Below are positions 5,791-52,762 of a stretch of 64,000 nucleotides of DNA, in pieces (the stretch's first letter is position 1; each line of letters opens with the position of its first letter). The stretch spans positions 205,157 through 269,156 of the forward strand of contig QPMI01000655.1 in NCBI GenBank assembly GCA_004431415.1, read 5' to 3'. The stretch comes from Cyanophora paradoxa CCMP329 (Eukaryota; Plantae; Glaucophyta). The notes beneath the pieces are model-generated. The model ran no database searches and was not told the origin of the DNA. It saw only the letters and a program-made list of their open reading frames with translations. The position numbers and the translations under genes were made by a program.

Positions 5791-8700
5791 ATGAAGGGCG
5801 GCGTGGTGCCGCTCGATCATGAGCTGGGAGTTGCGCTTGCGCTGCACGGCCTGCCGACCGTCCGGCCGCGCGCTCCCTCGAGCGCGGCGCCGAGCTCCCG
5901 AGCGCGCAGCCGCTCCGGCTCATCGGACGGGTGCGCCTCGCGATCGCCCGACTCTACCCGCGAGGAAGAGGCGGTTACGGATCCGGAGCGGGCGGCCGCC
6001 GCCGGGGGCGCGGGATGGGGCTCGGGCGGGGGCCTCTCGCGGGGCGGGGCGGTGCCGGTGGCGGTGCTGGCGGCGGTGCAGTCGGCGGCGCTGGCGTGCG
6101 TGCTGGCGGTGCTGCTGGGCCCCGACCCGCTGCCGCCGCCGGCGCGCGGCCTCCTCGCAGCCGCCTGCGCCGCCATGCTCCTCGCCGTGGCCGCCGCTGC
6201 CGCCGCCCTCCACCTGCTCGCCGTGCGGCCGCTGCGCCGCCTCCTCGCCGCCGCCGCCCGCCCGCGGCCCCGCCCCGGGGCCCCTCCCCGCCCTCCTCGC
6301 CGCCATCGACCCCCGCCCGTCGCCGGCGCCGGCGGGGCCGGCCGGGGCGGGGCGAGCGGGGCGTGGCTGCGGGACGAGGTGGCGGAGCTGCGTGGCGCGT
6401 GGGAGGCCGCCGGCGCCGCCCTCGCCGCCTGGCGCGAGCACTTCGACGCCCTCTTCGCCTTCCAGGCCCGACCCCCCCGCCACCACCCGCCCCGCCCCGC
6501 CCCGCCCTCCCCGCCCCGCCCCGCCCCGCCCCGCCGGCCGGGCTCACGGGGCCGCGCGGCGCAGGGCGCGGCCTACCTGTGCGTCACCGAGGCCGGCGCC
6601 GTTACGCGCATGAACGACGTGCGCCGTCCGCCCGCGCTCCGCCCGGGGCCGCCCCGAGCGCCCGCCGGCCGCAGGTGGCGCGCAAGCTCTTCGGGGTGCC
6701 GGAGGCCCCGCCCCGGTGCGCCCCTCGCCCCGCCCCTCGCGCCCAGCGCCGAGCCGCGCCGCGCCGCGCCGCGCCGCAGCCGCCGGCGAACCTCTCTGCG
6801 CTGCTGCCGAAGCTCTCGCCGGCGGTTCTGATGGCGGAAGTGGGAGAGCATGCAGCCGGGCCGATCACGATCTCGAGGGCGGCGGCGGGCGCCCGCGGCG
6901 GCGGCGGCGGCGGCGGGCTGTCGAGATGGACAGCGTGTGCCGCCGCGCCGACGGGACAACTTTCCTCGCCGAGATGCGCGCCTGCCGCCTCCCGACGGAC
7001 GCGGCGACCGGGGACGCGCTCGGGCCGGCGACGGGGGCGGGCGGGGGCTCGGGGGTGGCGCGGCGGGGGTCGGGATCGAGGGGGCTGCTGCTGCTGCAGC
7101 TGCGGGAGGCGGGGTGGAAGGGGGCGGACCCGCGCGTGAGCGTCTTCATGGAGCAGGCGAACGACGCCGTCATCGTCATGACCGCCAACTCCACGGCCCG
7201 CCGCGCCCCCCGCCCCCGCCCGCCCCGCCTGACCCGCCCCAGATCACCGCCTTCAACCGGAGCGCCCAGGCCATGTTCGGCTGGACGGCCGAGGAGGCCA
7301 TCGGCAGCAAGGTCGAGATGCTCATGAGCAAGCTCTACGGCTCCATCCAGTGCGCCCCGCGGCGGGCGGGGCGGGGCCGGGGCGCTGAGGGCGGGGCGGG
7401 CAGCCACAAGGCGGTGAAGCGGTACCTGCAGACGGGCGAGGCGCGCGTCGTCGGCCGCCTGCGCGAGACGACCGCCGTCCGCCGCGACGGCTCCCCCTTC
7501 CGTCCGCCCGCCCGCCCCGCCCCGCCCCGCCCCGGCGGCGGCCGACGGGGCGGCGGGGGCAGCGATCGAGCTCTCGGTGGCGGAGGCGCGGGTCGGGGGC
7601 GAGCGGCTCTTCGTGGGGAGCATCCGGGACGCGAGCGAGCGGCGGCGGGCGGTGCAGGAGCTGGAGGACACGAAGAGCCGGTACCAGTCGCTGCTGCTGA
7701 ACATCCTGCCGGCGCCCGTGGTGAAGGAGCTGCTGGAGGAGCGGCCGGTGCTCGAGCTCGCCACGCGCTACGAGGAGGTCGCCATCGTCTTCGCCGACAT
7801 CGTCGGCTTCACCGTGCGGCCCCGCCGGCCCCCGTCCCCCCGCGTCCCGCGGGGCCGCCGGGCCGGCTCGAGGGCGGGGGCGGGGCGCAGACGATCAGCG
7901 AGGGGCTGGACCCGCGCGTGCTCGTGCAGACCCTCAACGACATCTTCTCCCGCTTCGACGCCATCTGCGAGCGCCACGGCCTCGAGAAGGCGCCCCCGCC
8001 CCCCCGCCGCCCGGCCCCGGCCCCTCGCCCCGCCCTGACCGGCCCCCTGCGCCCAGATCAAGACCATCGGGGGTGAGACCATCGATATCCCGAGACCGCC
8101 GGCCGGGGCGGCGCCGCTTCGGCTCTGACGCCCCCCGGCGGCAGACGCGTACATGGCGGTCTCGGGGCTGCCCTTCCCGATCCCGCAGCACGTGGAGGCG
8201 GCGGCCGACACGGCCCTCGAGATGATCGAGGCGCTCGAGAACGTGCCGCCCTTCACCGTCCGCCTCAAGACCCGCCGCCGCGCCCCCCGCCCCGGCCCCG
8301 GCGCCGCCGCCACGCTGCTGCCGCCGCCGCCCGAGCCGCCTGCGCGGCGGGGCAGCCTCGAACTGGAAGCGAACGCTGGCGGGGTTGTGTACGACGAGGT
8401 TCGGGGCTTCTCGCGGCGGCCCTCCGCCGTCGGGCCCCCCGGCCTGCCCCAGGCCGCCCCCTCCCAATCCCGCGCCACGTCTCCCGCCTCGAGGCCGACC
8501 CCAGACACGGCCCCGCCGACGGCCTCTGCGGCGGGGGCGGGGGCGGAGGAGTGGGAGGAGGTGGAGGAGGAGCAGCGCGTCGACCTCCAGATCCGCGTCG
8601 GCATGGTCCGCCCCGCCCGCCCGCCCCTCTGAGGCCCCTCCCCGCCCCCCGGCCCCGCGCGCGCGTGCGGGCCGACGGCGGGGGTGCACGTGCAGCACAT

Positions 8701-11652
8701 GGGCCCGGTGGTGGCGGGGGTGATCGGGATCCGGAAGCTGGTGTACGACGTCTGGTCGGACGCCGTGAACGTCGCGTCGCGGATGGAGTCGTCGGGGGCG
8801 CCGGGCCGCGTGCACGTGAGCGCCGCCGTCGAGGCGCGCCTGCGGGAGCGCTTCGAGCTCGAGCCACGCGGGAGCGTGCACGTGAAGGGCAAGGGGCCGA
8901 TGGAGACCTTTTTCCTCGTCGGCCGCCGCCCGGAGGACCCGGGCGACCCCGCGACGCAGCGCGAGAACACATCGGGGCGCCTGCGGGCCGCCCTCTCGCC
9001 GCCGCTTGCTTCCCTGCCGCTCAGCAACCCGAGGGCAAGCCTGGCGTCCGAGGGGGAGGGCCCCGCCTCCGCCGAGTTCTCCCTCGGCGCCGCGGCGGCC
9101 CCTGCGCGATCGGCGCAATCGGCCTCTGTGAGGAGAGCAAAGAGCGTGCACCTGATCCGGATGCAGGAGGCGGAGATGGCGCGGCAGGAGATGGAGGACC
9201 GGGAGCCGGTCTCGGCCCTCGCCGGCGGCTTTGCCTGGGAGCGGGTCGCCGACCCCGCCTTCAACGCGCGCGACGTGGTGCACCTGGCGGCGAGCGAGGC
9301 GCGCGCGCTCGTCGGCAAGCTGCTCCGCATGCTCGGCCTCGCCTCGCTGCTCGCCGGCAAGGAGGCCGCCCTCGACGCCCTCGTCCAGGAGCTCCAGGCC
9401 GCCCCGCCCCGCGCCGGCTCCCCCGCCCGCGGCTTCCAGGGGGCCCTCCAGGCCGCCCACCAGCTCGCCCTGCTCGTGCGGGGCGTCGAGCGGCTGCGGC
9501 GGCACGTGTACCCCGCCGAGATCCTCGGCATCTTCCTCGCCCTTCTCTGCTCCAACGCCGAGGCCGCCGTGGGGGCCCTCCTGCAGGCCTCGCGGCTGCC
9601 CGAGGGGCAGGGGCCGGGGCCGGCCGCGCCGCCGCAGGCCCTCGAGCGCAGCGCCCTCGCCCGCGCCCGCGAGTGGCTCCAGCAGCACCCCCTCGACGGC
9701 AAGCCCGCCGCCGCCGGGCCCTCGCCCGTGGCGGACATGAGGAGGGCGGGTCGGTCGATCAAGAGGAGAGCGGCGGCGTCGCTCACGATCGATACCAACC
9801 CGCCGGCCGTGGAGGCCGTGCGCGGGGCCGGCGTGGAGTGCAGCCCGCAGAGCGATTCCTCCCCGCACAGCGCCCACGCCCGCTTCAGCTTCCGGGCGGC
9901 CCCGTTCCTGCAGGCGGCGGCAGCCGCCGACCGGGATGGCCTCGGGCCCCCCTCGCCGTCGAGCGTCGCCGCCGTTGGCCGCCCCGGAGCGCCCGCCCCG
10001 CACTTCTCCCCGCTGCGCGGCCCGCAGGAAGCGCCGGGAGGCGGCAGCGCCAGCGGCGGCCTGCAGCCTTCGCCGCGGTCACCACCATCGCCGAAGGGGC
10101 CGGTAGAAGACGGGTTCGGGCCAGCGTCGCCGTCGGGGAAAGGCGGGCGCGTGGCGGCGCTGCTGCTGGAGATCCTCGAGGAGATCGACTCGGTGGACGA
10201 GCGGCGCGCCCGCCCGCCCGCCCGCGCGCCGGCGGCAGCGGCGGCTGAGCGGGCGGGGGCGCAGGTGCGCGAACACGCTCTGCTCGTGCCTGGAGGCGGT
10301 GGGGGACCGGGCGGAGGCGGCCCTCGCCTGGACCCTCCTCATGGAGGAGACGGCCGCCGAGTACGAGGCGCTCCGCTCCGGCGGGCCCGACCGCTCCTGG
10401 TCCCTCTCCGAGCCGGCCCGCGCCCGCCTCTGCGCCCTCCTCTTCCGCGTCGCCAGCTTCGCCGACTGCTACAAGTTCCCCCACGTCGCCGAGCGCGCCG
10501 CCCCCGCCTTGTCCGCCCGCCCCACCCGCCCCCGCCGCGGCCGCCCCGCCTGACACCCCACCCGCAGCGCGTACCAGTACTTCCGTGCGCCGCGCCGCGC
10601 CGCGTGCCGGCGCCGCCACGCGCCGCTGCCCTGCAGCTGTCGCCGACGCGGGGTCGCGCAGCGGAACTGGCGCCGGCGGGGCCGATCGAGCCGCCGGAGC
10701 GGGAGGAGGGAATGTCGGACGGGGCGAGCTCGGTGGGCAACAACAACGCCACCTCAGCACGTGCGTGTTTCTCATCATGACCAGCGTTCCCGCGCGGAAT
10801 CTTGAATCTGAGGCGGCGCGCGCAGAGCTGCTGGAGGGCGGGTTCACGAACCTGATCATGGGCGGCCCGGCGGCGTCGCTGGGGACGCACGGGCACAGGC
10901 GCTCCTCCATCCACTTCCAGCGCGCTCGCTCGGCGTCGGATCTGAGCCAGTCGGGCCCCAGCTCCCGCCTCAGCTCCCTAGGCCTCGCTACCATCTCCAG
11001 CTCCCTCCGCAACCCGCTGGCGCCGGCGTGGCCGGCGGGGGCGGCGCAGCAGGCGGCGGCGGTGGCTCGGGCGCGGCGGGCGGCGCGCCTCGCGCCGGCG
11101 GCGCTCCGGGCGTGGCAGGCGAGCGCGGAGCACGTCATCGCGTTCATCGACGTGCGGCCCGGGAGCTGCGCGGGGGGCGGGGCCGGGACGGGGCGCTGAG
11201 TCGCTGGGGGGCAGATCGTCGTGGGGCCGGTGCTGCACGTGGCGGGGCGGCTGCTGGAGGAGCTCGCCGACGAGGAAGGCAAGCTCGAGCAGCCCCGCGA
11301 GATGTTCCGCGCCATCGCCTTCGCCGGGCCCCTGCCTCCCCCGGGCGTCTCGACCCCGGATGCGGATGCGCGTGCAGGTGGTGCCGCCGCCCCTTCTTCA
11401 AATTCGGAGCCGGAGTTGGCGACGCCGCGCTCAAGGGCGCGGGCCCGCCGCCTCCCAATCGCGAGCCGGCACCCAGCCTCCACTCAAGCTCAAGCAGCCT
11501 CGGGCGACTCGATCGCGAGCCCCGTCGCGAGGCCCGGGCCCCAAGCCTCCCGTCGACTCGCCGATCGCGAGCTCGAGCTCGAGCCGCCCAGGAACCCTTT
11601 CCAGACTCCCACTGCACTTGCAATCGGCCACTACTATGCGTTTGGAATTTAG
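5791..11652 (+). CDS. TM/PAS-domain class III adenylyl cyclase with degenerate PDE-like C-terminus (multi-exon), copy A
   Basis: PAS (FNRSAQAMFGWTAEEAIGSKVEMLM; RRDGSPF..ELSV); cyclase motifs IVFADIVGFT, EKIKTIGDAYM, IRVGMH.GPVVAGVIG, YDVWSDAVNVASRMES. K and D at the specificity positions imply ATP substrate. Ends approximate. Confidence 0.8.
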
Positions 11653-12298: not shown

Positions 12299-15200
12299 CT
12301 AGAAGACGCTGGAGAAGGGCCTGGCTGCGGCGGGCCCCGAGGGGGGCACCCCGCCCCCGCGGCCTGCCCGAGGGGGCCCCGAGGAGCGGGGAGCCGCGAA
12401 TGCGGACGGGGTGCCCCCCTCGGAAGGAGTCGGGGAAGCAACGGCGGGCGTTAGGGGCCCGGCGAAGGCGATGGCGCGGAACATCTCGCGGGGCTGCTCG
12501 AGCTTGCCCTCCTCGTCGGCGAGCTCCTCCAGCAGCCGCCCCGCCACGTGCAGCACCGGCCCCACGACGATCTGCCCCCCAGCGACTCAGCGCCCCGTCC
12601 CGGCCCCGCCCCCCGCGCAGCTCCCGGGCCGCACGTCGATGAACGCGATGACGTGCTCCGCGCTCGCCTGCCACGCCCGGAGCGCCGCCGGCGCGAGGCG
12701 CGCCGCCCGCCGCGCCCGAGCCACCGCCGCCGCCTGCTGCGCCGCCCCCGCCGGCCACGCCGGCGCCAGCGGGTTGTGCACGTGCGGGGTGGGGCCGGCT
12801 CCGAGGGAGTGCGGGCGCGGGTTCTCGGCGAGGGTGCGTCCGCGCGGGGCGCCGGGGGCGGGCCGCTGGTGGCCGTGCAGTAGGGCAAAGGAGCCAAGGG
12901 CGGGGCCGCCCATGATCAGATTCGTGAACCCGCCCTGCAGCAGGTCTGCGGGCGCCGCCGTCAGAGAGAGCGGGAGGCGTCGCGCAAGGCAGCGCACCCG
13001 GGGACAGATCGGCGGTGCCCACCGAGCTCGCCCCGTCCGACATCCCATCCTCCCGCTCCGGCGGCTCGATCGGCCCCGCCGGCGCCAGCTCCGCTGCGCG
13101 ACCCCGCGTCGGCGACAGCTGCAGGGCAGCGGCGCGTGGCGGCGCCGGCACGCGGCGCGGCGCGGCGCACGGAAGTACTGGTACGCGCTGTGGGGTGGGG
13201 CGTCAGGCGGGGCGGCCGCGGCGGGGCGGGGCGGGCGGGGCGGGCGGACAAGGCGGGGGCGGCGCGCTCGGCGACGTGGGGGAACTTGTAGCAGTCGGCG
13301 AAGCTGGCGACGCGGAAGAGGAGGGCGCAGAGGCGGGCGCGGGCCGGCTCGGAGAGGGACCAGGAGCGGTCGGGCCCGCCGGAGCGGAGCGCCTCGTACT
13401 CGCCGGCCGTCTCCTCCATGAGGAGGGTCCAGGCGAGCGCCGCCTCCGCCCGGTCCCCCACCGCCTCCAGGCACGAGCAGAGCGTGTTCGCGCACCTGCG
13501 CCCCCGCCCCCTCAGCCGCCCCTGCCGCCGGCGCGCGGGCGGGCGGGCGGGCGCGCGCGCGCCGCTCGTCCACCGAGTCGATCTCCTCGAGGATCTCCAG
13601 CAGCAGCGCCGCCACGCGCCCGCCCCGCGCGGCGCGCTGCGTCGACTGGCCGGCGGCGGACGTCCGGCGGGAGCCGGGCGCCGAGGAGGGCCTCGGCCCC
13701 GGCCTCCACATCGCCTCGCTCGTGGGAAACGAGCCCGAGCTGTAGACGCGCCCGATCCCGGGCGTCTCCTCCTCCTCCTCCTCCTCCAGCTCGGGCACCG
13801 TCTCGGGCTGCTGGGAGCGGCAGCGGCTGCGGACGCTGGCGGTGGCGGCTGGCGGCGAGGGCGAGGCGAGCTCGCCGACGCTCGGGAGGAGGCGCCCCTC
13901 GGCGGCCACGAGGCGGAAGGAGGGCGCCCGGAAGCTGAAGCGCGGGCGCCCCGAGGGCGAGGCTGGCGGCCCCGCTCCAAAGCCCAGCGAGCCCCCCCCA
14001 CTCGGAGGTCCCGCCGCCGGCTCCTGCGCCGCCGCCGCCGCCGCCGCCGCCCGCCGCATCTCTTCCACGGGCGAGGGCGCCGGCGCCGGCGCCGGGGCGG
14101 CGGCGGGCTTGCCGTCGAGGGGGTGCTGCTGGAGCCACTCGCGGGCGCGGGCGAGGGCGCTGCGCTCGAGGGCCTGCGGCGGCGCGGCCGGCCCCGGCCC
14201 CTGCCCCTCGGGCAGCCGCGAGGCCTGCAGGAGGGCCCTCACGGCGGCCTCGGCGTTGGAGCAGAGGAGGGCGAGGAAGATGCCGAGGATCTCGGCGGGG
14301 TAGACGTGCCGCCGCAGCCGCTCGACGCCCCGCACGAGCAGCGCGAGCTGGTGGGCGGCCTGGAGGGCCCCCTGGAAGCCGCGGGCGGAGGAGCCGGCGC
14401 GGGGCGGGGCGGCCTGGAGCTCCTGGACGAGGGCGTCGAGGGCGGCCTCCTTGCCGGCGAGCAGCGAGGCGAGGCCGAGCATGCGGAGGAGCTTGCCGAC
14501 GAGCGCGCGCGCCTCGCTCGCCGCCAGGTGCACGACGTCGCGGGCGTTGAAGGCCGGCTCCGCCACCCGCTCCCAGGCGAAGCCGCCGGCGAGCGCCGAG
14601 ACCGGCTCCCGGTCCTCCATCTCCTGCCGCGCCATCTCCGCCTCCTGCATCCGGATCAGGTGCACGCTCTGCGCCCGCTTGAAGCGCGGCCCGTGGCCGC
14701 TGCCGCCTGCATCAAAGTCGCCTCCAGCGCTCTCGGCGAGGCTTCCCTTGCGCGTCACAGCCGCTGTACGCGGGGACGCTGCCATGGATGGCGGCTCGCC
14801 GGGGGCCGGGCCAAGGGCGGCCCGGATGCGGCCCGCCGCCCCTACTTCCCGGTGCGTGGCCGGCGTGCGGGCGCCCTCCGGGCGGCGGCCGACGAGGAAG
14901 AAGGTCTCCATCGGCCCCTTGCCCTTCACGTGCACGCTCCCGCGCGGCTCGAGCTCGAAGCGCTCCCGCAGGCGCGCCTCGACGGCGGCGCTCACGTGCA
15001 CGCGCCCCGGCGCCCCCGACGACTCCATCCGCGACGCGACGTTCACGGCGTCCGACCAGACGTCGTACACCAGCTTCCGGATCCCGATCACCCCCGCCAC
15101 CACCGGGCCCACGTGCTGCGCCCCCGCCGTCGGCTCGCACGCGCGCGCGGGGCCGGGGGGCGGAGCCTCAGAGGGGCGGGCGGGCGGGGCGGACCATGCC

Positions 15201-18002
15201 GACGCGGATCTGGAGGTCGACGCGCTGCTCCTCCTCCACCTCCTCCCACTCCTCCGCCCCCGCCGCCGCCGCTTGGGCAGGGGCGGGCGACGAGGAGCGG
15301 GACCCGGCAGCGAGGTCGAAGAGAGAGGCGGGGAGGAGGACGCCCGGGGCCGGCGCCGGCGAGGCGCGCCCGTCGGAGGCCGGCCCGTGGATGGTTGTCG
15401 AGGGCCGCGGCGAGAAGCGCCCGCTGCCTTCGTGTTCTTCTTCCAGTTCGAGGCTGCCCCGCCGCGCAGGCGCCTCGGGCGGCGGCGGCAGCAGCGTGGC
15501 GGCGGCGCCGGGGCCGGGGCGGGGGGCGCGGCGGCGGGTCTTGAGGCGGACGGTGAAGGGCGGCACGTTCTCGAGCGCCTCGATCATCTCGAGGGCCGTG
15601 TCGGCCGCCGCCTCCACGTGCTGCGGGATCGGGAAGGGCAGCCCCGAGACCGCCATGTACGCGTCTGCCGCCGGGGGGTGTCAGAGCCCCAACGCGGCGC
15701 CGCCCCGGCCGGCGGTCTCGGGATATCGATGGTCTCACCCCCGATGGTCTTGATCTGGGCGCAGGGGGCCGGTCAGGGCGGGGCGAGGGGCCGGGGCCGG
15801 GCGGCGGGGGGGCGGGGGCGCCTTCTCGAGGCCGTGGCGCTCGCAGATGGCGTCGAAGCGGGAGAAGATGTCGTTGAGGGTCTGCACGAGCACGCGCGGG
15901 TCCAGCCTCTCGCTGATCGTCTGCGCCCCGCCCCCGCGCTCCAGCCGGCCCGGCGGGCGGGGCCCCGCGGGGCGCGGGGCGGGGGCGGGCGGGGCCGCAC
16001 GGTGAAGCCGACGATGTCGGCGAAGACGATGGCGACCTCCTCGTAGCGCGTGGCGAGCTCGAGCACCGGCCGCTCCTCCAGCAGCTCCTTCACCACGGGC
16101 GCCGGCAGGATGTTCAGCAGCAGCGACTGGTACCGGCTCTTCGTGTCCTCCAGCTCCTGCACCGCCCGCCGCCGCTCGCTCGCGTCCCGGATGCTCCCCA
16201 CGAAGAGCCGCTCGCCCCCGACCCGCGCCTCCGCCACCGAGAGCTCGATCGCTGCCCCGCCGCCCCGTCGGCCGCCGCCGGGGCGGGGCGGGGCGGGGCG
16301 GGCGGGCGGACGGAAGGGGGAGCCGTCGCGGCGGACGGCGGTCGTCTCGCGCAGGCGGCCGACGACGCGCGCCTCGCCCGTCTGCAGGTACCGCTTCACC
16401 GCCTTGTGGCTGCCCGCCCTGCCCTCAGCGCCCCGGCCCCGCCCCGCCCGCCGCGGGGCGCACTGGATGGAGCCGTAGAGCTTGCTCATGAGCATCTCGA
16501 CCTTGCTCCCGATGGCCTCCTCGGCCGTCCAGCCGAACATGGCCTGGGCGCTCCGGTTGAAGGCGGTGATCTGGGGCGGGTCAGGCGGGGCGGGCGGGGG
16601 CGGGGGGGCGGGGCGGGCCGTGGAGTTGGCGGTCATGACGATGACGGCGTCGTTCGCCTGCTCCATGAAGACGCTCACGCGCGGGTCCGCCCCCTTCCAC
16701 CCCGCCTCCCGCAGCTGCAGCAGCAGCAGCCCCCTCGATCCCGACCCCCGCCGCGCCACCCCCGAGCCCCCGCCCGCCCCCGTCGCCGGCCCGAGCGCGT
16801 CCCCGGTCGCCGCGTCCGTCGGGAGGCGGCAGGCGCGCATCTCGGCGAGGAAAGTTGTCCCGTCGGCGCGGCGGCACACGCTGTCCATCTCGACAGCCCG
16901 CCGCCGCCGCCGCCGCCGCGGGCGCCCGCCGCCGCCCTCGAGATCGTGATCGGGCCCGGCTGCATGCTCTCCCACTTCCGCCATCAGAACCGCCGGCGAG
17001 AGCTTCGGCAGCAGCGCAGAGAGGTTCGCCGGCGGCTGCGGCGCGGCGCGGCGCGGCGCGGCTCGGCGCTGGGCGCGAGGGGGCGGGGCGAGGGGGCGCA
17101 CCGGGGCGGGGGCCTCCGGCACCCCGAAGAGCTTGCGCGCCACCTGCGGCCGGCGGGCGCTCGGGGCGGCCCCGGGCGGAGCGCGGGCGGACGGCGCACG
17201 TCGTTCATGCGCGTAACGGCGCCGGCCTCGGTGACGCACAGGTAGGCCGCGCCCTGCGCCGCGCGGCCCGTGAGCCCGGCCGGCGGGGCGGGGCGGGGCG
17301 GGGAGGGCGGGGCGGGGCGGGGCGGGGGTGGTGGCGGGGGGGTCGGGCCTGGAAGGCGAAGAGGGCGTCGAAGTGCTCGCGCCAGGCGGCGAGGGCGGCG
17401 GCGGCGGCCTCCCACGCGGCCCGCAGCTCCGCCACCTCGTCCCGCAGCCACGCCCCCGCCGACGCCGCCCCGGCCGGCCCCGCCGGCGCCAGCGAAGGGC
17501 GGCGGTCGATGGCGGCGAGGAGGGCGGGGAGGGGCCCCGCGGCGCCGGCCCCGGGGCGGGCGGCGGCTGCGAGGAGGCGGCGCAGCGGCCGCACGGAGAG
17601 CAGGTGGAGGGCGGCGGCGGCGGCGGCCACGGCAAGGAGCATGGCGGCGCAGGCGGCTGCGAGGAGGCCGCGCGCCGGCGGCGGCAGCGGGTCGGGACCC
17701 AGCAGCACCGCCAGCACGCACGCCAGCGCTGCCGACTGCACCGCCGCCAGCACCGCCACCGGCACCGCCGCGCCCCGCGAGAGGCCCCCGCCCGAGCCCG
17801 ATCCCGCGCCCCCGGCGTCGAGCTCCGCTGGGTCATCGGGCCCGGGGGCATATGATCCTGAGCGCGTGCCGGCGACGCCGCGCGAGGCGGCCCGTGAGGC
17901 GCCGGCCGCGGCGAATGGCGCCGCCGGCACGGGCGCGGGGGCCAGGCTGTGCAGCGAAGCGGGGCCTTCTGGCACCACCCCGTGCTCCCTTCCGACCTTC
18001 AT
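12299..18002 (-). CDS. TM/PAS-domain class III adenylyl cyclase with PDE-like C-terminus, inverted paralog copy B
   Basis: Reverse complement is near-identical to 5.99-11.33 kb over domains and introns; same motifs in ORFs 15773..17851, 15168..15656, 12587..15112. Confidence 0.8.
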
Positions 18003-22950: not shown

Positions 22951-22956
22951 TACCCC
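22951..22956 (+). repeat. Left target-site duplication TACCCC
   Basis: The same hexamer occurs directly after the right TIR (52757-52762). Confidence 0.9.
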
Positions 22957-23248
22957 ACACATAGGGATACCCCTGATCCAAGCCCTCCGGCCTTCGGCCT
23001 ACAGGCTTGGATCAGGGGTATCCCTATGTGTGCGCGTTTCAGGTACTAGGGTAGTAAGCATTTATTTCAGGTCTTAGGGTATTAATCATGTCTTTTTGGC
23101 ACCAGTATGTTGGCCGCCTCTGGGGTATTAGAAGCTTGGATTCGGCACCAATTAGGCAGGAGAGGCAGGAGGGTTATTTGTAAACTTTCCTATGGATTCC
23201 CCTCTTGTGTGGGATTTTACATATAACCCTCCTGCCTCTCCTGCCTCT
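22957..23248 (+). repeat. Left terminal inverted repeat (~292 bp) containing two hairpins
   Basis: Reverse complement of 52467-52756, with only a few differences in the loop of the inner hairpin. Confidence 0.95.
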
Positions 23249-23257
23249 ATCCATAAT

Positions 23258-23628
23258 TAAGACTGCCAACCATCTCTTCATTTCTTTACGTTTTCTCTTA
23301 AAGAGATATCTTGAATAGTCAGGGGATGGAAGGGGAATGGGAGTGTCTGGTAAAAGGGTGGTTTGAGGGATGGCAGGGGGATGGGATGGATGGCGGAGGG
23401 GATGGCAGGGGGATGGAGGGATGGCAGAGGGGATGGCAGGGGATGGGAAAATGTATGAAATTTGGTTGATTTGTGACGATATCTGGTCAGGGGATGGGAG
23501 GGGGATGGGACTCAGTCAGGGGATGGGACTTTTCTCAGAAAACAAATTTTGTTTTTGTTTTTTGAAATTTTCTATTCGAGTACAAGGGGATGGGTTTCCC
23601 ATCCCCTCATCCCCCCATCCTCCTCTCT
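23258..23628 (+). repeat. G-rich internal direct repeat, copy 1 (GGGGATGG array followed by CCATCCCC array)
   Basis: Aligns by eye with 31001-31355 (taagactgcc...aaagagatatcttgaatagtcagggg...gggacttttctcagaaaa...aggggatgggtttcccatcccc). Confidence 0.85.
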
Positions 23629-23630
23629 GC

Positions 23631-25018
23631 TCAAATCCTCCTCCTTGATCTCGTGGAAATTGCTGGAGCTTCATAGGTCTCCTTTGAATTCGAGAAATCT
23701 CTATACCACCTTACTGCCTCTGCTCCCCCTGCTAATCTCTCTGTTCCCGCCACCCTCAATCTCTCCAACTCTCTCCCTTGTTTCTTCTTCTTCCCTGCTC
23801 TGTCCTCCAATAATGGTTTATCTGGCACGTTTGGCGCCCTCTCAATCCCCTCTCTGGCCAAAAGTCGCTCTGTTCTGGCCTCTTTCTTTGCCTCTTCAAT
23901 GACATTTATTGATGGCGCCTCCAAGAACTCCACGGTTTCCACTTTCTGTAATTCGTAGTGGGCATAAAGTCGATCTATTAGTTTGCCAGAAATGTCCCTT
24001 AGTTTAAATTTGAACCCCTCCACTCCTTCTATTGTGAATATTTCGCGGCTCCAATTATTCCCTTGTTTGGCAAATGGGCTCTTCTCTATTTTAGTTCTCA
24101 CGTGGCTCCCTGCTGGATAGTCTTTTAGATATTCAATTGACTTCATGAATTTCTCGTTTTCTTTTCCGAGTATTAGAGGAACATGTACCTCTGTGGTCTC
24201 TGCTGGTTTCATCCCGTTGCTGAGTGGATGGTATTATTGTAGTTGTAGGCAAAATCTTGGAGCTTGTCGAAAAACTTTACAGTATTATTCGCTATACAAT
24301 ACGAGTTAATTAGCTTCTTTATTGTGCGATTAAAGGCTTCTATTCGGCCTTGGCTATTGTGATCTCCAACCTGCGAAACTTGGTGCTCAATCATCTGGGT
24401 TTCTAAATGGTCTTTAAATACCTTGTTCAGGAATTCGCTCCCAGCATCACTTTGTATCTTCACAATTGGACGAGGGACTTGTTGCTCAAGCTCCTTAAAT
24501 GCGTTCAATGTGCTTTCTGCTGTCTTTCCCCTCATGGGAATTATAAAGCCCAGTCTGGTGGTATTTTCTACAGCTGTGAGGAACGTGTTGTAGCCTTGAT
24601 TCTGTTTGCTGTACGAAGGATAAAAGATTAGGTCTATGGCATAGCAGTCGAGTGGCTGTCTTATTGGGATATAGGCAGTCTTCTTGGCAGATGGGAGGGG
24701 TTTATTTATCTGGTTGATTTCTTGGGCATCATAGAATCTACGGATTGTCTTTCTTGGCACATCTGGAAGCTCTTTGGCCAATGAAGCAAGGCCTTTAAAT
24801 CCTACCTTGGTGTCATAGAATGTCCTTGCTAAGGGATCCAAGTGAGGCACAGCAATGGCAGTTGGGATATCCGCAGGAACTAAAGCTTTGAGGTCACTCT
24901 TTTTCTGAATGCGACCCCTCTCTCCTCTTGAGGGATTGGGATTGGCAATATACTCACATCGTACTCTGTTTGTCTGCGTGTGATCTTTGATGACATCTAT
25001 ATTGGGATTAGAAAGCAA
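23631..25018 (-). CDS. Retroviral-type (rve) Maverick/Polinton integrase; one 1-nt indel near 24212
   Basis: DDE motifs YAIDL, QSDAGSEF, RIEAFNRTI; YNNTIHSATG|MKP is restored by adding one G; C-terminal VR..K..F.K...NWS.EIF.I...ELQKV typical of Maverick integrases. Confidence 0.9.
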
Positions 25019-28000
25019 TCTTTGACATCTTCACATTGAAGGTCTCATTTTCAAGCTTCTTTTGGACAGTCATTTCGATTTGCTTGGGTTTTTGGTGGAG
25101 CACATGGTCTTTATAATCTTGGAAAGACAGATCTGTTTGAATGGTCTCCTTACAAACACCTGCCAGCTTTTTGATTTCCTCATCATCTGTTTTAATGCTG
25201 TAGCATTTCGGCCTCACACCAGCATATTCAGTAATGGTTCTGCCCTCAAACTCATCTTTGAACTTGCCAAGCTCTGTGGGGTGGGTGTCAATGTCTTGTA
25301 GGTCTTTTGCTATAGTTTTCGAATTTATTTGAAGGCAAAGCGAATCTGTATCAGTAAAAAGCAGTTTACAGTCTGGCCATTTCCGCTTGATGGTGTTATA
25401 ATAATAATCAAATAGGCGCAGCTTGGCAAGATCTAAAACAACTGCCCCAATTGCTATGGGCTTATCTAACTTGACATCTTTTTGTAGCATTTCGAAGGCT
25501 ACTGCTGAATCGCTTAGTCTTGTTTCTGCTTTGAGTAGGGGCGATCTGGCGTATTTCATAAATTGCTTTTCGTTGGTGGCAATCTTGACATTAGACCTTC
25601 CTCTCACTTTCTCAATGGTTTTGCCAAAAAGGCTATTGTTCATGATCTTAAAGAAGTCCTTTTCGGGTTTGGAAGGGGCTGCTTTGCGGTTTTGGGCATT
25701 GGATTCGACGTAAGGCTTCATAAAGGCAGCCTGAGTAAATGTTAGCACCCTGTGGATTTTGGTGACCTTTAAGCCTTGCGCTACCATGAATTGGAGCAAA
25801 GGTTTCGACACCACATAATTACAAATGTCTTCGCAGGCTGCTTGTAGTCCATCCTCTGCTCTCTTGATAACAAGAGGTAGCTCTTTGTGGAGTTGATGGA
25901 GGTGCTGGGGATAATGGATGTCAACTTCTAAGATGGCCCCTCTGCTGATGACAGGTCGTAATTTGAGGGTTCTGGGTGCCATTGGAAATTCGAGAGGGGT
26001 AGCTTTTGGGATAGGGCATATCCATATAGGTTATTGGCATCCAAATATATAATGTGGCTGTCCCTTTCCTTTTTGGCATATTTATGATTCATAATCGAAA
26101 GGCCTCCCCTGATCATGCCTTCAACCATGTTGTACATATCAAGGTTGGAAAGAAGCTCGATTTTAGGCTTGGTAATAGATAGCATGCTGTCCACGAAAGC
26201 CCTGGACTTGAGACATAGAGGGCAGCATCCATCCCAAAAGTTTTGTGTGATTTCTGGCGGAAAAGCTGGAACTTTTCCATTAATCCTTCCACGTTCTGGA
26301 CGCCATAATCAATAAAGTTTTTGATGTCAATGAATTTAAAGCAACCCCAAGTGATCGACATGTAGTTGTCAAACGATTTTGCGAGGACTTCCACCCTTTT
26401 TTCGGGATTTAAGGCGACTGCCTTGAATATCTGCGTTCCAGATAGGGACAGATCATTGGTCACTATGGGAATCTTGGTGAGATTGCTGGTGCGTCTGTGG
26501 AGATTACATTTGCGACATGCTGTGCCTACAAAATCGCCAGTTTGGTGGTCGTGATCCCTCACTTTATAATTGTCTTGGGTGAAATCACCTTGGCAGATGT
26601 AGCAGGTTTTAGCAAGGTAATGGGTACGTTTCTGCTCTTTGGTCAGTGACATTGGGATGTTGGTAAATAGGGCTTTGAATAGCTCTGGGGCTGTGCTGTC
26701 GAGGGTACTCAGGAGCTCAAAGATGTTGGAGTGGGTTTTAGTGAGTACTACTCTATTATTATGAAGAGCTGTCAGTGAGATTGATTTGATCTTGAACATA
26801 CCAGAAATATCTGTTTCATAATCGAAATAGCAATAGGCAATCACGGGGAGGAATACAGTCTTTGAGAGATGTTTAAGACCAAATTCAATGAATGTGGGTT
26901 GTTTTGGGGTCTCTCCAGCACTTGTCTTCCAATCCACACAACGTTTGCTTTGAATGTGGGATTGAAGCTTCTCCTCAGTCTTGAAGTGGTTGGAACAGGT
27001 TTTACAGAAATGGAGTCGCTGCTTATCATTTTTAGCTAAGACTCTGGACATGCTGAATATTGTGGTATAATGACTGTTACCATTTTCGTCTGTAATAAGC
27101 AGCAGATCCACTTGGTGTTTCCTGTTCCTTGAGGAGCTGTTGTGGAGTAGATTAATTTCTTCTGTAGAGTTAGAGGGGTCGTAAATATTAACAGAGATTG
27201 CTGGATTGAGATTTTCAAAGAGATCAATAGTATCAGCATCTGCCTTTACAGGAAACTCAATGCCCTCGAAATTTAGTTCTTTTTTGAACCACCTCCTGTA
27301 TTGGGAAGTCTCATTGCGCTTGTGGCTATTTACTTCGTCCTTGTGAATATAAGAAAGGATAGCATACTCAAAGCATCTATTGTCCTTGTTATTAACATTG
27401 ACAATGGCTCGTTTATTTTTGAGCCACTCTGGGAGTGGGATAAAAGCACCTCCTGAGATGGGTTTAAAGGACAGAACAATCACTCTCAAAGCCTCAATGC
27501 TTTGGAGTTTATAGCTGTCTGTGACATTAATTTGCGACTGGCATTCCTTAGCCAATTTCGCAGTTTCTTTAGTGAGGGTTCGAGATCTTGTCATGATAGC
27601 ATAGGTGCTGTAAATGTGCTTGGTAATAAAGTCTCTCGAATTGTTTGCTTTTGAAAAGCGACAGACAAACGTAAAGCGAGTTTTAATCGACATCTGTGAA
27701 TTGATGGCATCTTGGAGCCTTGTGTGGAGTTCCTCAGAGTAGGTGTCTATAAACTCTTGAGTGGTCAGGATCTGGTGGTGAGCCCTGATGGTAAAATCAA
27801 TGTATTTATTATTAAGAGCACGATGTTCATTTATTAAGGTAGTGTATTCATCTCCTCTGACTTGAGTTGTGGTAGTTTGTTCGACTTGGATTTGGCCAAG
27901 GCGATCAGTCTCATCAAGGGTCTCGATTTTCCCTAATAGCTCTCGATTGAGAGCTTGAAGCCCCTTGAGCTTCTTGTTGGTCTGTTTAATATAAGATTCA

Positions 28001-28101
28001 TATTCACTTTCACTGATGGAGTGATTGGCCAGTAAGAACGCCAGATTCCCGAGAATCTTGTCCTGGAGCTCCTTAATTTGGTAGTGGCTGGGGCGGGGCA
28101 T
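25008..28101 (-). CDS. Protein-primed family B DNA polymerase (pPolB) with N-terminal OTU-like, C2H2 and EndoVII-like Zn domains; two 1-nt indels
   Basis: Motifs IRGG, YLDANNLYG, KIMNNSLFGK, FTDTDS, LGKFKDE, PKCYS; N-terminal FIPLPEWLKNKRAIVNVNNKDNRCFEYAI and CYIC..VRDHDHQTG...ACRKCN. Frames join by adding one G at ~26191 and at ~25938. Confidence 0.9.
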
Positions 28102-28540: not shown

Positions 28541-31003
28541 ATGACATCCACCATGTTCACCACCACCGAAATTACTTGTGCCCCCACTGAGGCAACTTTC
28601 AAGAAGCAGCTTCAAAACTTTGACAAGTCTGGCATCATCTCCATGAGCTGGGATGAGGCTAATTGTATCATTCAAAAAGGGAAGCACTGGGTCGAGCATT
28701 TAACCCCTGAACAGCTGACCAGGGTTTATTTGGACTTTGACAGGCTTGTCCCTCTCGAGAATGATGCTTCTATCAACCAAAAAGAAGCTGCTCAAGTTGT
28801 ATTGGATTTGCGCAAACGTCTTGCTGCCTTGTCAGGGGTTGACTTGGATAAAATTGCTGTTAGTGTGAGGCATCGAAGGGTAAAGCTTGTTGATTCAGGA
28901 GAGGTTAAATTCAAGCAATCTGCCCATTTTATTTGGGCAGATCTGGTTATGAAGCATGAAGATATCCCAAATCTACTTGATTCTTGGGGGCTGGTTAGAG
29001 GGGATGATTATGATCCTCAGCCATACAGTTCCACACAAAATATTGTCTGTATCTACAATTGTAAGGATACTGGGCTTGACAAAAGGACCAAAAAGCATGA
29101 TGTTGATATTGATGTGGTCTTCAAACCAGCAATGTACTGCCTTCAAGGAGTCCCCTATAAACACTACTTTGTCCAGTTCTATGAAGCTGGGGCGCAGCTA
29201 CTTCAAATTCAGGAGGGGGGCAAGGCTGTTCCATTCAAGGCTCCTATAGTGGCATCAAACCCCACCTTATCTGGCTTTGACATTCTTAGAAAGGCTGTTA
29301 TGGGGTTGGATGGAAAACGCGCTGATGATAGAAAGGCATGGGTCAATGTTGGCTATGCCATCTGTAATGTTAGCAAAGACATGGAAATCCCAAAGAAACA
29401 GGCCAGAGAACTGTGGCATGACTTCAGCTCTAAATGCTTGGACAAGTATGATGAAGATGGGGCTGACAAAGATTTTGAGAGCATCTGGAACAGCAAGAGA
29501 AAGGGGAGCAAAATCACAATGGGTTCACTCAGGACCTGGCTGAAGCAGGATAATCCAGAACTTTACAAGGTCATGTTTTCAGCACCCCAAGTATCAGGAT
29601 TCTTATTCTTGGATGATGAGGAGGGGGAAGAAAATGGAAAGGTCAACTACAAACTGGATCCAATCCCAGCAAGGGATATATATGAGGTACAAAAACGATA
29701 CTTGGATGCCAGGTGTATCCATTGTACTGATAAAAAGTGTGTGTTTATGTGGAATGACAAAGAAAAATCTTGGGTTCCCCATGACATTGAAAAAGTGAAG
29801 AAAGGTACTTTCCCACACATCCAGTATGATGCTGGGGATGGTAAATATAAGAGTACCTTCAAGAAGTGGATAGAGGATGGAGATAGTACCAGATATGAGT
29901 TTGTGGAGTTCCTTCCACCTCCTGCCAAGCTCCCATGTAAAACAGCCAGTGTCTTCAACCTCTATCAGGGAATGGCAATCGATTATGCTCCATGTGGTGA
30001 TATTCCTGATGTGATCACTGATGAGATGATCAGCCCTTTCCTGAAACATTTGAGTTTAATGTGTGGGGAGAATGAGAAAGCTACAGAGTATGCCTTGAAA
30101 TGGTTTGCTCATATGCTCCAGAGGCCTGGGGAAAAGATTGGGGTTGCCTTGGTTTTCATGGGTGTCCAAGGCACAGGAAAAAATACACTGCTGGACATTT
30201 TTGAGAAAAAGGTGTTGGGCAACAAATTGGCCTTCTCCACATGTGATGGAGAGAATGACCTATTTTCCAGATTCTCACACAACAAAGAGCATAAAATTAT
30301 GGTGACATTGAATGAGGCCAAAGCAAAGGATAACTATGAGTACAGCGAAAAGCTTAAGGATTATATAACAAATGATAAGATCACCATTGAACACAAAGGC
30401 ATTGACAGCTACACAAGCCCCAATTGTGTCCACTTCGTTTTCACAACAAATAGTAATATCCCTGTGAAGGTGGAGTCTGGAGATAGGCGATTTGCCTTCT
30501 TTGAAAGCAGCACAAAACACCAAAGAGATGCTGAGTACTTCAAGCCACTTCATGCTTGGCTTGACAATACTGACAACATCCACATGATTGTCAGGTTCCT
30601 GAAACACGTGGACATCAGCAATGTGGATTGGGATAAAGAGAGGCCATTGAGTGCCAAATATTTCCTTGCTCAACAGGCAACACTTTCACCTATTGAATAC
30701 TTTGCCTACTGGCTAACAGCCAATGGAAAGGTCACCAAGGAGAAATGTAAGACACAAAATCTGATCAGTGCTTGGACTTGGTGGGCAGAGTTTCAGGAGA
30801 AGGCCAAATTCAAGTGTGAGATGAATCAAAAGAAGTTCTATATTGAGATGAGGAATACAGCCTTTATTGAGGTGAAAAAGTGCCAAGGCATCAATTACTA
30901 TCATTTCAAATGGGAGGATATGATGTCTGCCTTCAAGAAATGTAAGCTGGAAGATGATGATAGCATCAAAGAGGAAGAGAATATTCTGATTCAAGATGAT
31001 TAA
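28541..31003 (+). CDS. AEP primase-polymerase + PriCT-2 + D5-like SF3 helicase (820 aa)
   Basis: RVYLDFD, SAHFIW, YDPQPY (AEP); WVNVGYAI..LWHDFSSK..KYD..ITMGSLRTWLKQDNPE (PriCT-2); GVQGTGKN, LNEA, FTTN, DRRF (SF3). Confidence 0.92.
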   Translation: MTSTMFTTTEITCAPTEATFKKQLQNFDKSGIISMSWDEANCIIQKGKHWVEHLTPEQLTRVYLDFDRLVPLENDASINQKEAAQVVLDLRKRLAALSGVDLDKIAVSVRHRRVKLVDSGEVKFKQSAHFIWADLVMKHEDIPNLLDSWGLVRGDDYDPQPYSSTQNIVCIYNCKDTGLDKRTKKHDVDIDVVFKPAMYCLQGVPYKHYFVQFYEAGAQLLQIQEGGKAVPFKAPIVASNPTLSGFDILRKAVMGLDGKRADDRKAWVNVGYAICNVSKDMEIPKKQARELWHDFSSKCLDKYDEDGADKDFESIWNSKRKGSKITMGSLRTWLKQDNPELYKVMFSAPQVSGFLFLDDEEGEENGKVNYKLDPIPARDIYEVQKRYLDARCIHCTDKKCVFMWNDKEKSWVPHDIEKVKKGTFPHIQYDAGDGKYKSTFKKWIEDGDSTRYEFVEFLPPPAKLPCKTASVFNLYQGMAIDYAPCGDIPDVITDEMISPFLKHLSLMCGENEKATEYALKWFAHMLQRPGEKIGVALVFMGVQGTGKNTLLDIFEKKVLGNKLAFSTCDGENDLFSRFSHNKEHKIMVTLNEAKAKDNYEYSEKLKDYITNDKITIEHKGIDSYTSPNCVHFVFTTNSNIPVKVESGDRRFAFFESSTKHQRDAEYFKPLHAWLDNTDNIHMIVRFLKHVDISNVDWDKERPLSAKYFLAQQATLSPIEYFAYWLTANGKVTKEKCKTQNLISAWTWWAEFQEKAKFKCEMNQKKFYIEMRNTAFIEVKKCQGINYYHFKWEDMMSAFKKCKLEDDDSIKEEENILIQDD

Positions 31004-31355
31004 GACTGCCCTCCTTCTACTCATTTTTTCCATTTATCTATAAAAGAGATATCTTGAATAGTCAGGGGGATGGAAGGGGGATGGGACTGTCTGGTAAGGA
31101 GTGGTTTGAGGGGATGGGTAGGGGGATGGGAGGGGATGGGAGGGGGATGGGTAGGGGGATGGGAAAAAAGGAAGGAGGTGGCTGATTTGTGACCATAGCC
31201 AGTCAGGGGGATGGGTAGGGGGATGGGAGTCAGTCAGGGGGATGGGACTTTTCTCAGAAAAATAATTTTGTTTTTGTTTTTTGAAATTTTCTAATCGAGT
31301 TCAAGGGGATGGGTTTCCCATCCCCCCATCCCCCTATCCCCCCATCCCCCTCTCT
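31001..31355 (+). repeat. G-rich internal direct repeat, copy 2
   Basis: Begins at the helicase stop codon; same anchors as 23258-23628. Confidence 0.85.
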
Positions 31356-32293: not shown

Positions 32294-32447
32294 TGTATAT
32301 ACCATAATGATATATGTATATGATATATTATGATGTCACATGACATATATATATAACATAGCTTTCCGGACTCGCCGCGTCATGGCGATCACGGCGCTAT
32401 AGTTTTTACCAAAACTTGTTTTTTTTTCATATATATCATATACATAT
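32294..32447 (+). repeat. 154-bp AT-rich foldback unit, copy 1
   Basis: Near-identical to 33917-34069; perfect 17-bp internal inverted repeat (32312-32328 / 32431-32447). Confidence 0.9.
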
Positions 32448-32457
32448 GTACGTTCGC

Positions 32458-33916: not shown

Positions 33917-34069
33917 TGTATATACCATTATGATATATGTATATGATATATCATAATGTCACATGACATATATATATAACATAGCTTTCCGGACTCGCCG
34001 CGTCATGGCGATCACGGCGCTGTAGTTTTTACCAAAACTTGGTTTTTTTCATATATATCATATACATAT
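33917..34069 (+). repeat. 153-bp AT-rich foldback unit, copy 2
   Basis: Direct repeat of 32294-32447; followed by CCTACC/GGTAGG dyad motifs (34079-34212). Confidence 0.9.
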
Positions 34070-34645
34070 ATATGAGCCAGCCTACCGCAGTGGTAGGCGA
34101 GCCCGTGTGTCTACCGCAGACCGGTAGGCACAGTCCGCCGGCGGTAGAACAGTAGGGCCCTGCCTACTCGCCTACCGGTAGAGCCCTCGCGCCTACCGTA
34201 CAGCAGTAGGCGGCTTTTTCCTTATAGAGCTCTATAAGAATGTTTCTAAAACTTTCAATTAGAGCCACTTAAGGAACTTCAAACGCGAATATCTCGGCAC
34301 CAGATTGGCCGTTTTGAGCGCTCTTTTTTTCCTGTGAAGCTCTCATCAAGCTCTACGCAGAGCCGCCCCTTTCGCATTTTTATGCTGCCTAAAAGTAGAT
34401 TATTATGACAACTCCCATCCATACTCGCCTTGTAGAGGTGTCCTTTGAACTCTCATATTTGGCGCTGACGTCTCCAAGCTCAGAACTGAGTAACTCCATA
34501 CATCGCCTCTCTATAGAACTGTACAACCTTGGTCATCGAATAGCCCCCTGTCTCCACATATCAAAGCAGCTTTACAAAAAATATCAAACGATCTCCTCAT
34601 GCTTGGAAATGAGATTAGCCCCTTCCCTGATGGCAGATAATGTGT

Positions 34646-35968: not shown

Positions 35969-36751
35969 TTATAGACCGCGTTTATATCGCATTAACTTAT
36001 TACTATGAACTTGGCTTTTCACTTCTTTGCGCCCCTCTTCTTTCTCTGGTGGTTTAAGCTCATCTTCTTTCTTCTTTGGCTTCCTGTGGAACCGTGGAAA
36101 TGGGAAATCTTTGACCAAATCCGCTTTATCTACGAAATATTTCACAGAATAATCGGCGGATGACCAAATTAGAAACTGATAGGAATGAACGTACTCTTCA
36201 AACATTTTATAGAAAACATCTTTGTCCCGCATTATATTATATTCTTCCTCAATGGCTTCAAGCTCCTTTCTATTGGCAGCGCTTAGGAACATAGCATAAT
36301 CTGAGTTGACGCGAATGGTCGATGAGACTTTCCTTAGCTTTTGTGTGATACAGATAATAGATATTTTCAAATGTCTGCCCATAGAGTACAATTTGTTGAT
36401 TATTTTATCGCGAGTGAGATCGACCAAGTCATTATCAATTAGATCGTCCAGTACAACTAAGAGTTGATTAATCGGCTCTCCTTTTTCTATTTTCTGTTGT
36501 CGATCTTCCAGAACCTTTTCAATGTAAGGAGCATCCCATTTGCCAAGCTGAACACTTGCTACATTGTTCCAAAAGTTGTTAAAAGCCGTTCCACTGATTA
36601 CAAGGACGACATCAATCTTTTTGGCATCATGAAGCTGCTTGAGCCAGTACTTGACAGCCTCTGATTTACCAGTAGCAGATTTGCCAATTGCCAAAACGCG
36701 GAAAGGGGGGTTTATCATCTCACCAGCATTAAATTCGTCCAAGTCGCCCAT
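35969..36751 (-). CDS. A32-like (FtsK/HerA) genome packaging ATPase
   Basis: Walker A GKSATGKS, Walker B LLVVLDD, GRHLKISIICITQ, IRVNSDY. Confidence 0.93.
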   Translation of the reverse strand: MGDLDEFNAGEMINPPFRVLAIGKSATGKSEAVKYWLKQLHDAKKIDVVLVISGTAFNNFWNNVASVQLGKWDAPYIEKVLEDRQQKIEKGEPINQLLVVLDDLIDNDLVDLTRDKIINKLYSMGRHLKISIICITQKLRKVSSTIRVNSDYAMFLSAANRKELEAIEEEYNIMRDKDVFYKMFEEYVHSYQFLIWSSADYSVKYFVDKADLVKDFPFPRFHRKPKKKEDELKPPEKEEGRKEVKSQVHSNKLMRYKRGL

Positions 36752-52466: not shown

Positions 52467-52756
52467 AGAGGCAGGAGAGGCAGGAGGGTTATATGTAAAA
52501 TCCCACACAAGAGGGGATTCCTTAGAAGTTTACAAATAACCCTCCTGCCTCTCCTGCCTAATTGGTGCCGAATCCAAGCTTCTAATACCCCAGAGGCGGC
52601 CAACATACTGGTGCCAAAAAGACATGATTAATACCCTAAGACCTGAAATAAATGCTTACTACCCTAGTACCTGAAACGCGCACACATAGGGATACCCCTG
52701 ATCCAAGCCTGTAGGCCGAAGGCCGGAGGGCTTGGATCAGGGGTATCCCTATGTGT
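52467..52756 (-). repeat. Right terminal inverted repeat (~290 bp)
   Basis: Reverse complement of 22957-23248; termini 5'-ACAC...GTGT-3'. Confidence 0.95.
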
Positions 52757-52762
52757 TACCCC
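52757..52762 (+). repeat. Right target-site duplication TACCCC
   Basis: ...ccctatgtgt|tacccc; matches 22951-22956. Confidence 0.9.

Follow-up and report, generated by a model that had tools for sequence, protein, structure and literature searches.

An asymmetric terminal hairpin, found in a single orientation at the ends examined, bounds an integrated polinton-like virus of Cyanophora paradoxa and may act in fold-back priming

The hairpin telomeres of AAV and poxviruses occur as flip and flop isomers and are served by a Rep nickase or a junction resolvase. The T-like terminal palindromes described here resemble the parvoviral (AAV) ITRs, and a self-complementary end can give a 3′-OH primer; unlike in AAV and poxviruses, however, none of flip and flop isomers, Rep nickase or junction resolvase was found in the element that carries them. 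In Halocafeteria seosinensis, palindromes located in the TIRs and adjoining target duplications are described for virophage subtypes 1, 2, 5 and 6 and for polinton-like virus (PLV) subtype 4 (10.64898/2026.07.28.741278). The same preprint links these palindromes preferentially, as a tendency, to replicases other than pPolB, and proposes hairpin priming. Terminal palindromes and the priming idea are thus already known from that work, whose figures and supplements may list loops or pPolB-bearing cases. The Cyanophora element shares with the Halocafeteria elements a palindrome in the TIR beside the target duplication, an rve integrase and the character of a low-GC endogenous element. However, the Halocafeteria palindromes as described have a gap of at most 10 nt, whereas the Cyanophora element has an asymmetric, structured loop of 19 nt whose orientation can be scored; moreover, it encodes a pPolB with TP, vOTU and intact palm motifs beside a primase-helicase.

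Two other systems provide points of comparison. With the pPolB replicons of Polinton/Maverick and mavirus (PMC11161782), the element shares a TP-vOTU-(exo)-palm polymerase, rve, TIRs and a 6-bp duplication. Unlike Polinton/mavirus as described there, it has Asp in the column of the predicted linking Ser, has lost the exonuclease motifs and the C-terminal D-x-K-R, and possesses an extra primase-helicase and a terminal fold-back, with no maturation protease found among the 21 ORFs scanned. With Streptomyces telomeres (PMC5449611), it shares a terminal palindrome whose 3′ strand bears a GNA triloop, at least two hairpins within the first ~300 nt, the absence of inversion and a TP fold encoded in the replicon. 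This likeness is an analogy only: palindrome I of Streptomyces measures 13 nt instead of 75, Tap and Tpg are unrelated proteins, and no integrase or capsid is involved. TIRs are treated as origins in 10.1101/2023.10.16.562556, giant-virus ends are dealt with in PMC12747079, and a PLV of Cyanophora paradoxa is mentioned in PMC12220804. Neither hairpins nor palindromes were mentioned in the available text of 10.1101/2025.10.09.676808 and PMC12220804 when it was looked up by word, and within a partial coverage of the literature we found nothing on the orientation of loops, on GNA caps or on the loss of the linking serine at the ends of PLVs. The copying of PLV ends and the removal of the terminal protein before integration are posed as open questions in PMC11161782 and 10.64898/2026.07.28.741278.

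The window analysed here is a stretch of 64,000 nucleotides of the Cyanophora paradoxa genome. It contains a 29.8-kb element bounded by terminal hairpins that sit within the TIRs (Table 1). The GC content of the element is mostly 38–51%, an island within DNA of mostly 65–84% GC. A Pfam scan of 21 of the 49 ORFs listed identified rve, an EndoVII-like domain, PriCT-2 with a D5-like helicase, an A32 ATPase, patatin, LamG and SAM decarboxylase; the integrase also has PHROG transposase matches. In the same 21 of 49 ORFs, the scan detected no maturation cysteine protease (a divergent gene could escape it), no HUH Rep nickase, protelomerase or telomere/junction resolvase, and no Tap or Tpg homologue. 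The 456-aa ORF has no Pfam match and resembles nothing but one gene model of Cyanophora paradoxa (58% identity). Its Atlas features lie at 0.98 to clusters in which 12–18% of members carry Capsid_N or Capsid_NCLDV, with a low recognition score, and the ORF likely encodes a capsid protein. Because it combines an rve integrase, a pPolB, a primase-helicase, an A32 ATPase, a likely capsid protein, TIRs and a 6-bp target duplication, the element is an integrated polinton-like virus (Polisuviricotina).

Table 1. Coordinates of the features discussed in the text (positions in the window; TIR, terminal hairpin and gene features of the element).
Feature	Position	Strand	Remarks
Target-site duplication, left copy	22951–22956	+	6 bp, TACCCC
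Left TIR	22957–23248	.	231 bp perfect, 292 bp at 98.6%
Left terminal hairpin	22957–23031	.	Arm 22957–22984, loop 22985–23003, arm 23004–23031
Loop mini-hairpin	22989–22999	-	GGCC-TTC-GGCC; GGCC-GAA-GGCC (C-GAA-G triloop) on the 3′-terminal strand
Second hairpin, left TIR	23154–23246	.	24-bp perfect stem, 45-nt structured interior
Direct repeat, copy 1	23253–23623	+	80% to 30996–31342
rve-type integrase	23631–24996	-	Split in the window at single-base indels; start placed by eye
pPolB	25008–28101	-	TP fold, vOTU, eroded exonuclease with EndoVII-like zinc domain, intact palm motifs
TP priming loop T194-D195-S196-Y197	27511–27522	-	D195 in the predicted linking-Ser column
Primase-helicase	28541–31003	+	PriCT-2, D5-like SF3 helicase; N-terminal AEP motifs by eye only
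Direct repeat, copy 2	30996–31342	+	
A32-type packaging ATPase	35969–36751	-	PF04665, E 4.6e-13
Likely major capsid protein, 456 aa	37866–39236	-	Nearest Atlas clusters are capsid clusters
Right TIR	52467–52756	.	
Second hairpin, right TIR	52469–52559	.	23 nt past the stop of the SAM-decarboxylase gene
Right terminal hairpin	52682–52756	.	Exact reverse complement of 22957–23031
Target-site duplication, right copy	52757–52762	+	TACCCC, 6 bp

Several other repeats were observed in and around the element. The genes at both ends read toward the second TIR hairpin, a structure absent from the first-pass annotation, which is similar in placement to the 3′-end hairpins of giant-virus and virophage mRNAs; a role as transcription terminator was considered for this inner hairpin only. 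The 80% direct repeat pair brackets the block formed by integrase, pPolB and primase-helicase, as if this module were separately mobile, and double replicases with repeats bracketing them are described in 10.64898/2026.10.13.758929. Two 157-bp direct repeats (32294–32450 and 33917–34072, 95.5%), each a palindrome with a 17–19-bp stem, bracket ~1.5 kb that is richer in GC and has no clear gene, and this region is a candidate internal origin or inserted mini-element. At 47120–47854, 39-bp tandem repeats end a 1488-aa fibre-like ORF that is split across several frames, the breaks being probably further assembly indels. Outside the element, the host DNA contains an inverted duplication of ~5.3 kb (5997–11340 and 12446–17820) with pieces 82–99% complementary and a 1.1-kb spacer, which holds PAS and adenylate/guanylate cyclase domains. 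No relatives were found among viral contigs searched by MCP, ATPase and palm, or in metagenomes searched by MCP alignment.

The arms of the terminal hairpin pair perfectly (28/28) around a 19-nt loop, and the right end reproduces the left exactly in reverse complement. Both features, together with the GGCC-TTC-GGCC motif of the loop, had been described in a first-pass annotation of the stretch and are confirmed here. The outer base of the hairpin coincides with the virus–host junction, the stem ending exactly at the target duplication; one extra pair formed at the left end with the flanking host base (29 in the scan) is fortuitous. The hexamer TACCCC also occurs inside the arm, at 22968–22973; two other flanks seen in short reads carry no repeat of it, and its match to the target hexamer is probably due to chance. 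No perfect local inverted repeat in the whole 64-kb window is longer than the terminal hairpin. When the element was simulated with matched dinucleotide composition, its best perfect local stem reached 10–15 bp in 200 out of 200 cases, as compared to 28 bp in the real sequence, and the first 294 nt fold with a z-score of -12.4, none of 200 shuffles being equally stable. An assembly artefact is unlikely, because the flank-to-arm junction is present in all four short-read runs aligned, as is a sister hairpin whose loop differs. No other copy of the arm, and no solo copy, exists elsewhere in the 64-kb window when up to 8 mismatches are allowed, and a search of IMG/VR with the exact arm gave 0 matches. 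A gapped pattern search with the arm returned 24 loci, which were rejected as chance matches with stems of just 9–11 bp. The 23 sub-threshold matches to miRNA precursors in Rfam were dismissed as generic to any long hairpin.

The two strands of the loop differ in the pairs that they can form. On the 3′-terminal strand, all 4 pairs between the mini-stem and the main stem are G·A or G·T, as against C·A or C·T on the other strand; by inspection, the three loop-flank pairs of the sister hairpin are G·A on the 3′ strand. The energy gap between the two strands computed with ViennaRNA is only 0.7 kcal/mol, and ViennaRNA does not model the extra stability of GNA triloops. Such triloops form very stable, nuclease-resistant DNA mini-hairpins (PMC6479982, PMC5449611). 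These pairings suggest that selection acts on the 3′ strand as folded single-stranded DNA.

Public DNA runs provided further copies of the element. At least half of the words of the left 10 kb are present in 19 runs of one organism, four of which were aligned to the left end. The short-read contigs include the window's own junction and two other flanks joined to the same tip. A sister end is represented in 4/4 runs by a contig of 114 nt, the first 45 letters of which fail to align to the window. The 30 letters printed for this contig comprise 13 arm letters with one change, followed by a 17-nt loop; its arm is therefore 28 nt long as in the window, since 45 = 28 + 17. The sister mini-stem reads GGGC-TTC-GCCC where the window has GGCC-TTC-GGCC, so that one pair is changed on both sides while the closing pair and the triloop are kept. 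The sister loop contains GCGAAGC, and differs from that of the window in its flanking bases and its length. The left sister arm carries one change, the partner base of which is not among the differences listed, and arm length is kept at this end with a nearby inner TIR that differs at several places. The palindrome is retained at this sister end, where the arm is equally long and the loop has changed. Stem covariation, which the first-pass annotation proposed to look for in relatives, is visible here between sister copies in one mini-stem pair; a single covarying pair between two loop types of one organism is weak but real evidence.

Near position 23105, some sister ends cease to match the TIR after its first ~149 nt and continue into different sequence; the hairpin tip is therefore common to elements with different inner TIRs. 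Over positions 23878–26337 of the window, the runs contain contigs of single-copy depth that are ~80–87% alike. These contigs show a diverged sister element in the same organism, and P0031, the closest relative of the window pPolB (54% identity), may be its polymerase. Searching with P0031 yielded 10 distant metagenome loci (28–42% identity), none with an element end or a comparable hairpin.

The loop has the same orientation at both window ends (2/2). In 4/4 runs, the sister contig extends without interruption across both arms, the loop between them and 41 inner bases, and contains no inverted loop, because a loop inverted at even one end would have split the assembly graph to either side of the inner arm; variants of roughly single-copy depth do persist in the same assemblies as separate 61-nt contigs, bubbles from which k = 31 was inferred for the short-read contigs. 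The depth of the sister contig is 4.9–5.1x that of the host flank in all four runs, which corresponds to ~five ends as a rough figure, depth not being equal to copy number. One orientation at seven ends has a chance near 0.016 if the ends are independent and random, and they may not be independent. No inverted loop was present among the loose ends listed (21 of 24; 6 of 11), integrated copies only being concerned. Main-type ends elsewhere were left out of the scoring because one host flank makes the diagnostic words ambiguous. The comparison of flip and flop loops among copies, envisaged in the first-pass annotation, thus gave a negative answer for the two window ends and the ~five sister ends: flip-flop of the AAV/pox type is not seen in integrated ends, and an orientation that stays fixed is incompatible with symmetric resolution, as far as integration samples it.

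Does the element encode a polymerase still suited to protein priming? The pPolB retains palm motifs A, B, C and KxY, as well as the vOTU Cys and His. In contrast, a deletion of roughly 100 residues has removed ExoII and ExoIII, and the last ~30 aa are missing, including the D-x-K-R motif present in 11/11 aligned homologues. The main short-read contig has no indel at this C-terminus, and its short form appears real. The predicted linking Ser/Tyr of the TP domain is situated in the loop between alpha2 and beta4, with Gly/Pro nearby (PMC11161782). We aligned this loop in 140 of 176 homologues, after dropping 36 that lacked the vOTU Cys motif or 55 upstream residues. The linking column contains Ser in 133/140 homologues (Ser, Thr or Tyr in 136/140), and Gly or Pro is found at no more than 2 residues from it in 127/140, whereas the window pPolB and P0031 have Asp in this column and no Gly/Pro nearby. 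Both have Ser at +1, in a common D-S-Y. In the AlphaFold model, the TP fold is kept N-terminal to vOTU (mean pLDDT 91), and its top fold matches are the pPolBs of adintovirus, MELD, bidnavirus-like elements and mavirus. Protein priming may, on this model, persist via the shifted Ser. The altered linking site is therefore suggestive, but not decisive, as a sign that protein priming was lost, because the TP fold, a priming loop with Thr/Ser/Tyr, the +1 Ser shared with P0031 and the vOTU Cys/His are all kept.

The internal frameshifts of the window genes were compared with short-read contigs. Contigs without the two pPolB frameshifts account for all the depth at 25936 and for 2626 of 4086 at 26190; those without the rve frameshift at 24212 account for 1550 of 1655. 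Six indels just inside the left end are likewise without support in short-read contigs. The rve and pPolB frameshifts are thus likely assembly errors, and a pseudogene reading of the two genes was rejected as to these internal frameshifts, which are absent from the short-read contigs. Among the runs listed as containing the sequence there was none of RNA, and one 244-nt contig of a possible RNA run maps to the integrase; neither observation carries evidential weight.

The terminal hairpin is probably a functional end structure. The first-pass annotation had placed it at the ends of a virus-like element as a possible working structure, and this part is supported by a stem that stops at the target duplication and a sister that keeps arm length and mini-hairpin. 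The parvovirus or poxvirus form of the idea predicts loop inversion, which was not seen, and no Rep/HUH nickase or resolvase was found in the 21 ORFs. Hairpin-primed replication, also proposed there, remains the best reading in a form without inversion, whereas the form with inversion is contradicted by the single orientation at both window ends and in the sister contig. We tentatively favour, as the leading possibility although short of a probable one, that the hairpins are single-strand telomeres whose 3′ fold-back primes synthesis, the end being reopened on the same strand without flipping the loop. This reading is preferred because of the perfect stem, the cap favoured on the 3′ strand, the eroded protein-priming module and the presence of a second replicase. 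The two-sided change in the mini-stem of the sister end also speaks for it, as does the tendency of the Halocafeteria palindromes to accompany replicases other than pPolB (10.64898/2026.07.28.741278).

On an excised or displaced strand, the 3′ end would fold into a rod capped by the GAA triloop. This folded end would be fully paired, because no mismatch interrupts the stem up to the final base of the virus, where the target duplication begins. The paired 3′-OH could then be extended by the palm of the element's pPolB, or by a polymerase of the host or of a helper, while strand displacement would fall to the D5-like helicase; trimming and re-extension on the inner arm would keep the stem perfect. 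Since plain hairpin priming with terminal resolution predicts inversion, and none is seen, reopening by the integrase has to be added. Acting on a hairpin-closed intermediate, the rve integrase would cut where the outer arm joins the copied strand, free the original 3′ end and insert this 3′-OH into the target at cuts staggered by 6 bp. Repair by the host would then copy through the hairpin, giving the same loop orientation at every insertion. Against fold-back priming, no nickase or resolvase for producing unit genomes was found in the 21/49 ORFs scanned, and the TP fold is intact, with a priming loop containing Thr/Ser/Tyr, the D-S-Y shared with P0031 and the vOTU Cys/His.

This conservation argues for protein-primed patching of the ends as in Streptomyces, a serious alternative that we nevertheless hold to be somewhat unlikely. 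The primase-helicase would copy the interior, leaving 3′ overhangs of about TIR length; the hairpins would protect or mark the overhang and template the repair of lost end bases, and the TP-vOTU-pPolB, now a short-patch enzyme, would fill the 5′ end from the shifted linking Ser. Such a scheme directly predicts no loop inversion, as in our data, and employs every encoded part, including the TP fold, the hydroxyl residues of the priming loop and the vOTU dyad. Streptomyces telomeres are described as having GNA triloops in the 3′ overhang and as restoring truncated ends by fold-back (PMC5449611), and a short-patch enzyme may dispense with proofreading. However, the Ser present in 133/140 homologues is replaced in the linking column, and a 3′ end fully paired over 28 bp would be a ready primer and a poor TP template. 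Moreover, the Halocafeteria palindromes favour elements without pPolB (10.64898/2026.07.28.741278), and the 21 ORFs scanned contain no Tap/Tpg homologue.

The palindrome might instead be a by-product of ancestral fold-back copying of an end, spread with the TIR and devoid of present function. Accidental annealing is raised as an alternative by the Halocafeteria authors (10.64898/2026.07.28.741278), and all our data come from related copies in one host. This explanation is nevertheless improbable: the loop is not copied from an arm, yet its mini-hairpin has survived a change on both of its sides, even though loop flanks and length differ, and the sister keeps its arm length although the nearby inner TIR differs at several places. 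A role in integration or excision only is at least as doubtful. Here a junction nuclease would cut a cruciform formed at the boundary, or a second integrase site would be provided by the inner arm, which repeats the terminal 28 bp exactly in inverted form. The pPolB indeed harbours an EndoVII-like domain (PF02945, E 6.2e-6), but this domain is common across the pPolB family, being precomputed in 4/29 matches with the motif visible across the alignment. In addition, a cruciform extrudes both strands, which leaves a favourable loop on the 3′ strand only unexplained, and the 64-kb window has no solo arm copy elsewhere. The EndoVII-like zinc domain itself (26500–26650, minus strand, pPolB aa 485–534) displays DHDH and CxxCN motifs and is a hypothetical junction cutter. 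Finally, replication by a symmetric rolling hairpin or through closed telomeres, yielding both flip and flop ends as in AAV and poxviruses, is very improbable, for although a helper giant virus could supply a resolvase, both window ends have one orientation, the sister contig is unbroken in 4/4 runs and no Rep/HUH or protelomerase match exists in the 21 ORFs.

What is new here is an asymmetric loop that can be scored and does not flip at the ends examined, together with a pPolB whose priming site is altered. Thanks to the asymmetry of the loop, sequence data suffice to test the hairpin-priming model, and the absence of inversion at the integrated ends scored counts against its simplest form. 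The element family is present in multiple copies, roughly 15 by depth, in an organism with at least 19 public DNA runs. A bolder proposal, which we regard as rather unlikely but worth stating, is that of a virus family switching from protein to hairpin priming, where a pPolB deprived of its linking Ser would extend the fold-back 3′ end and the GAA-capped rod would let the integrase reopen the end without inversion. If true, this switch would amount to a non-flipping, hairpin-primed end cycle in which an integrase of retroviral type works with a polymerase that was formerly protein-primed.
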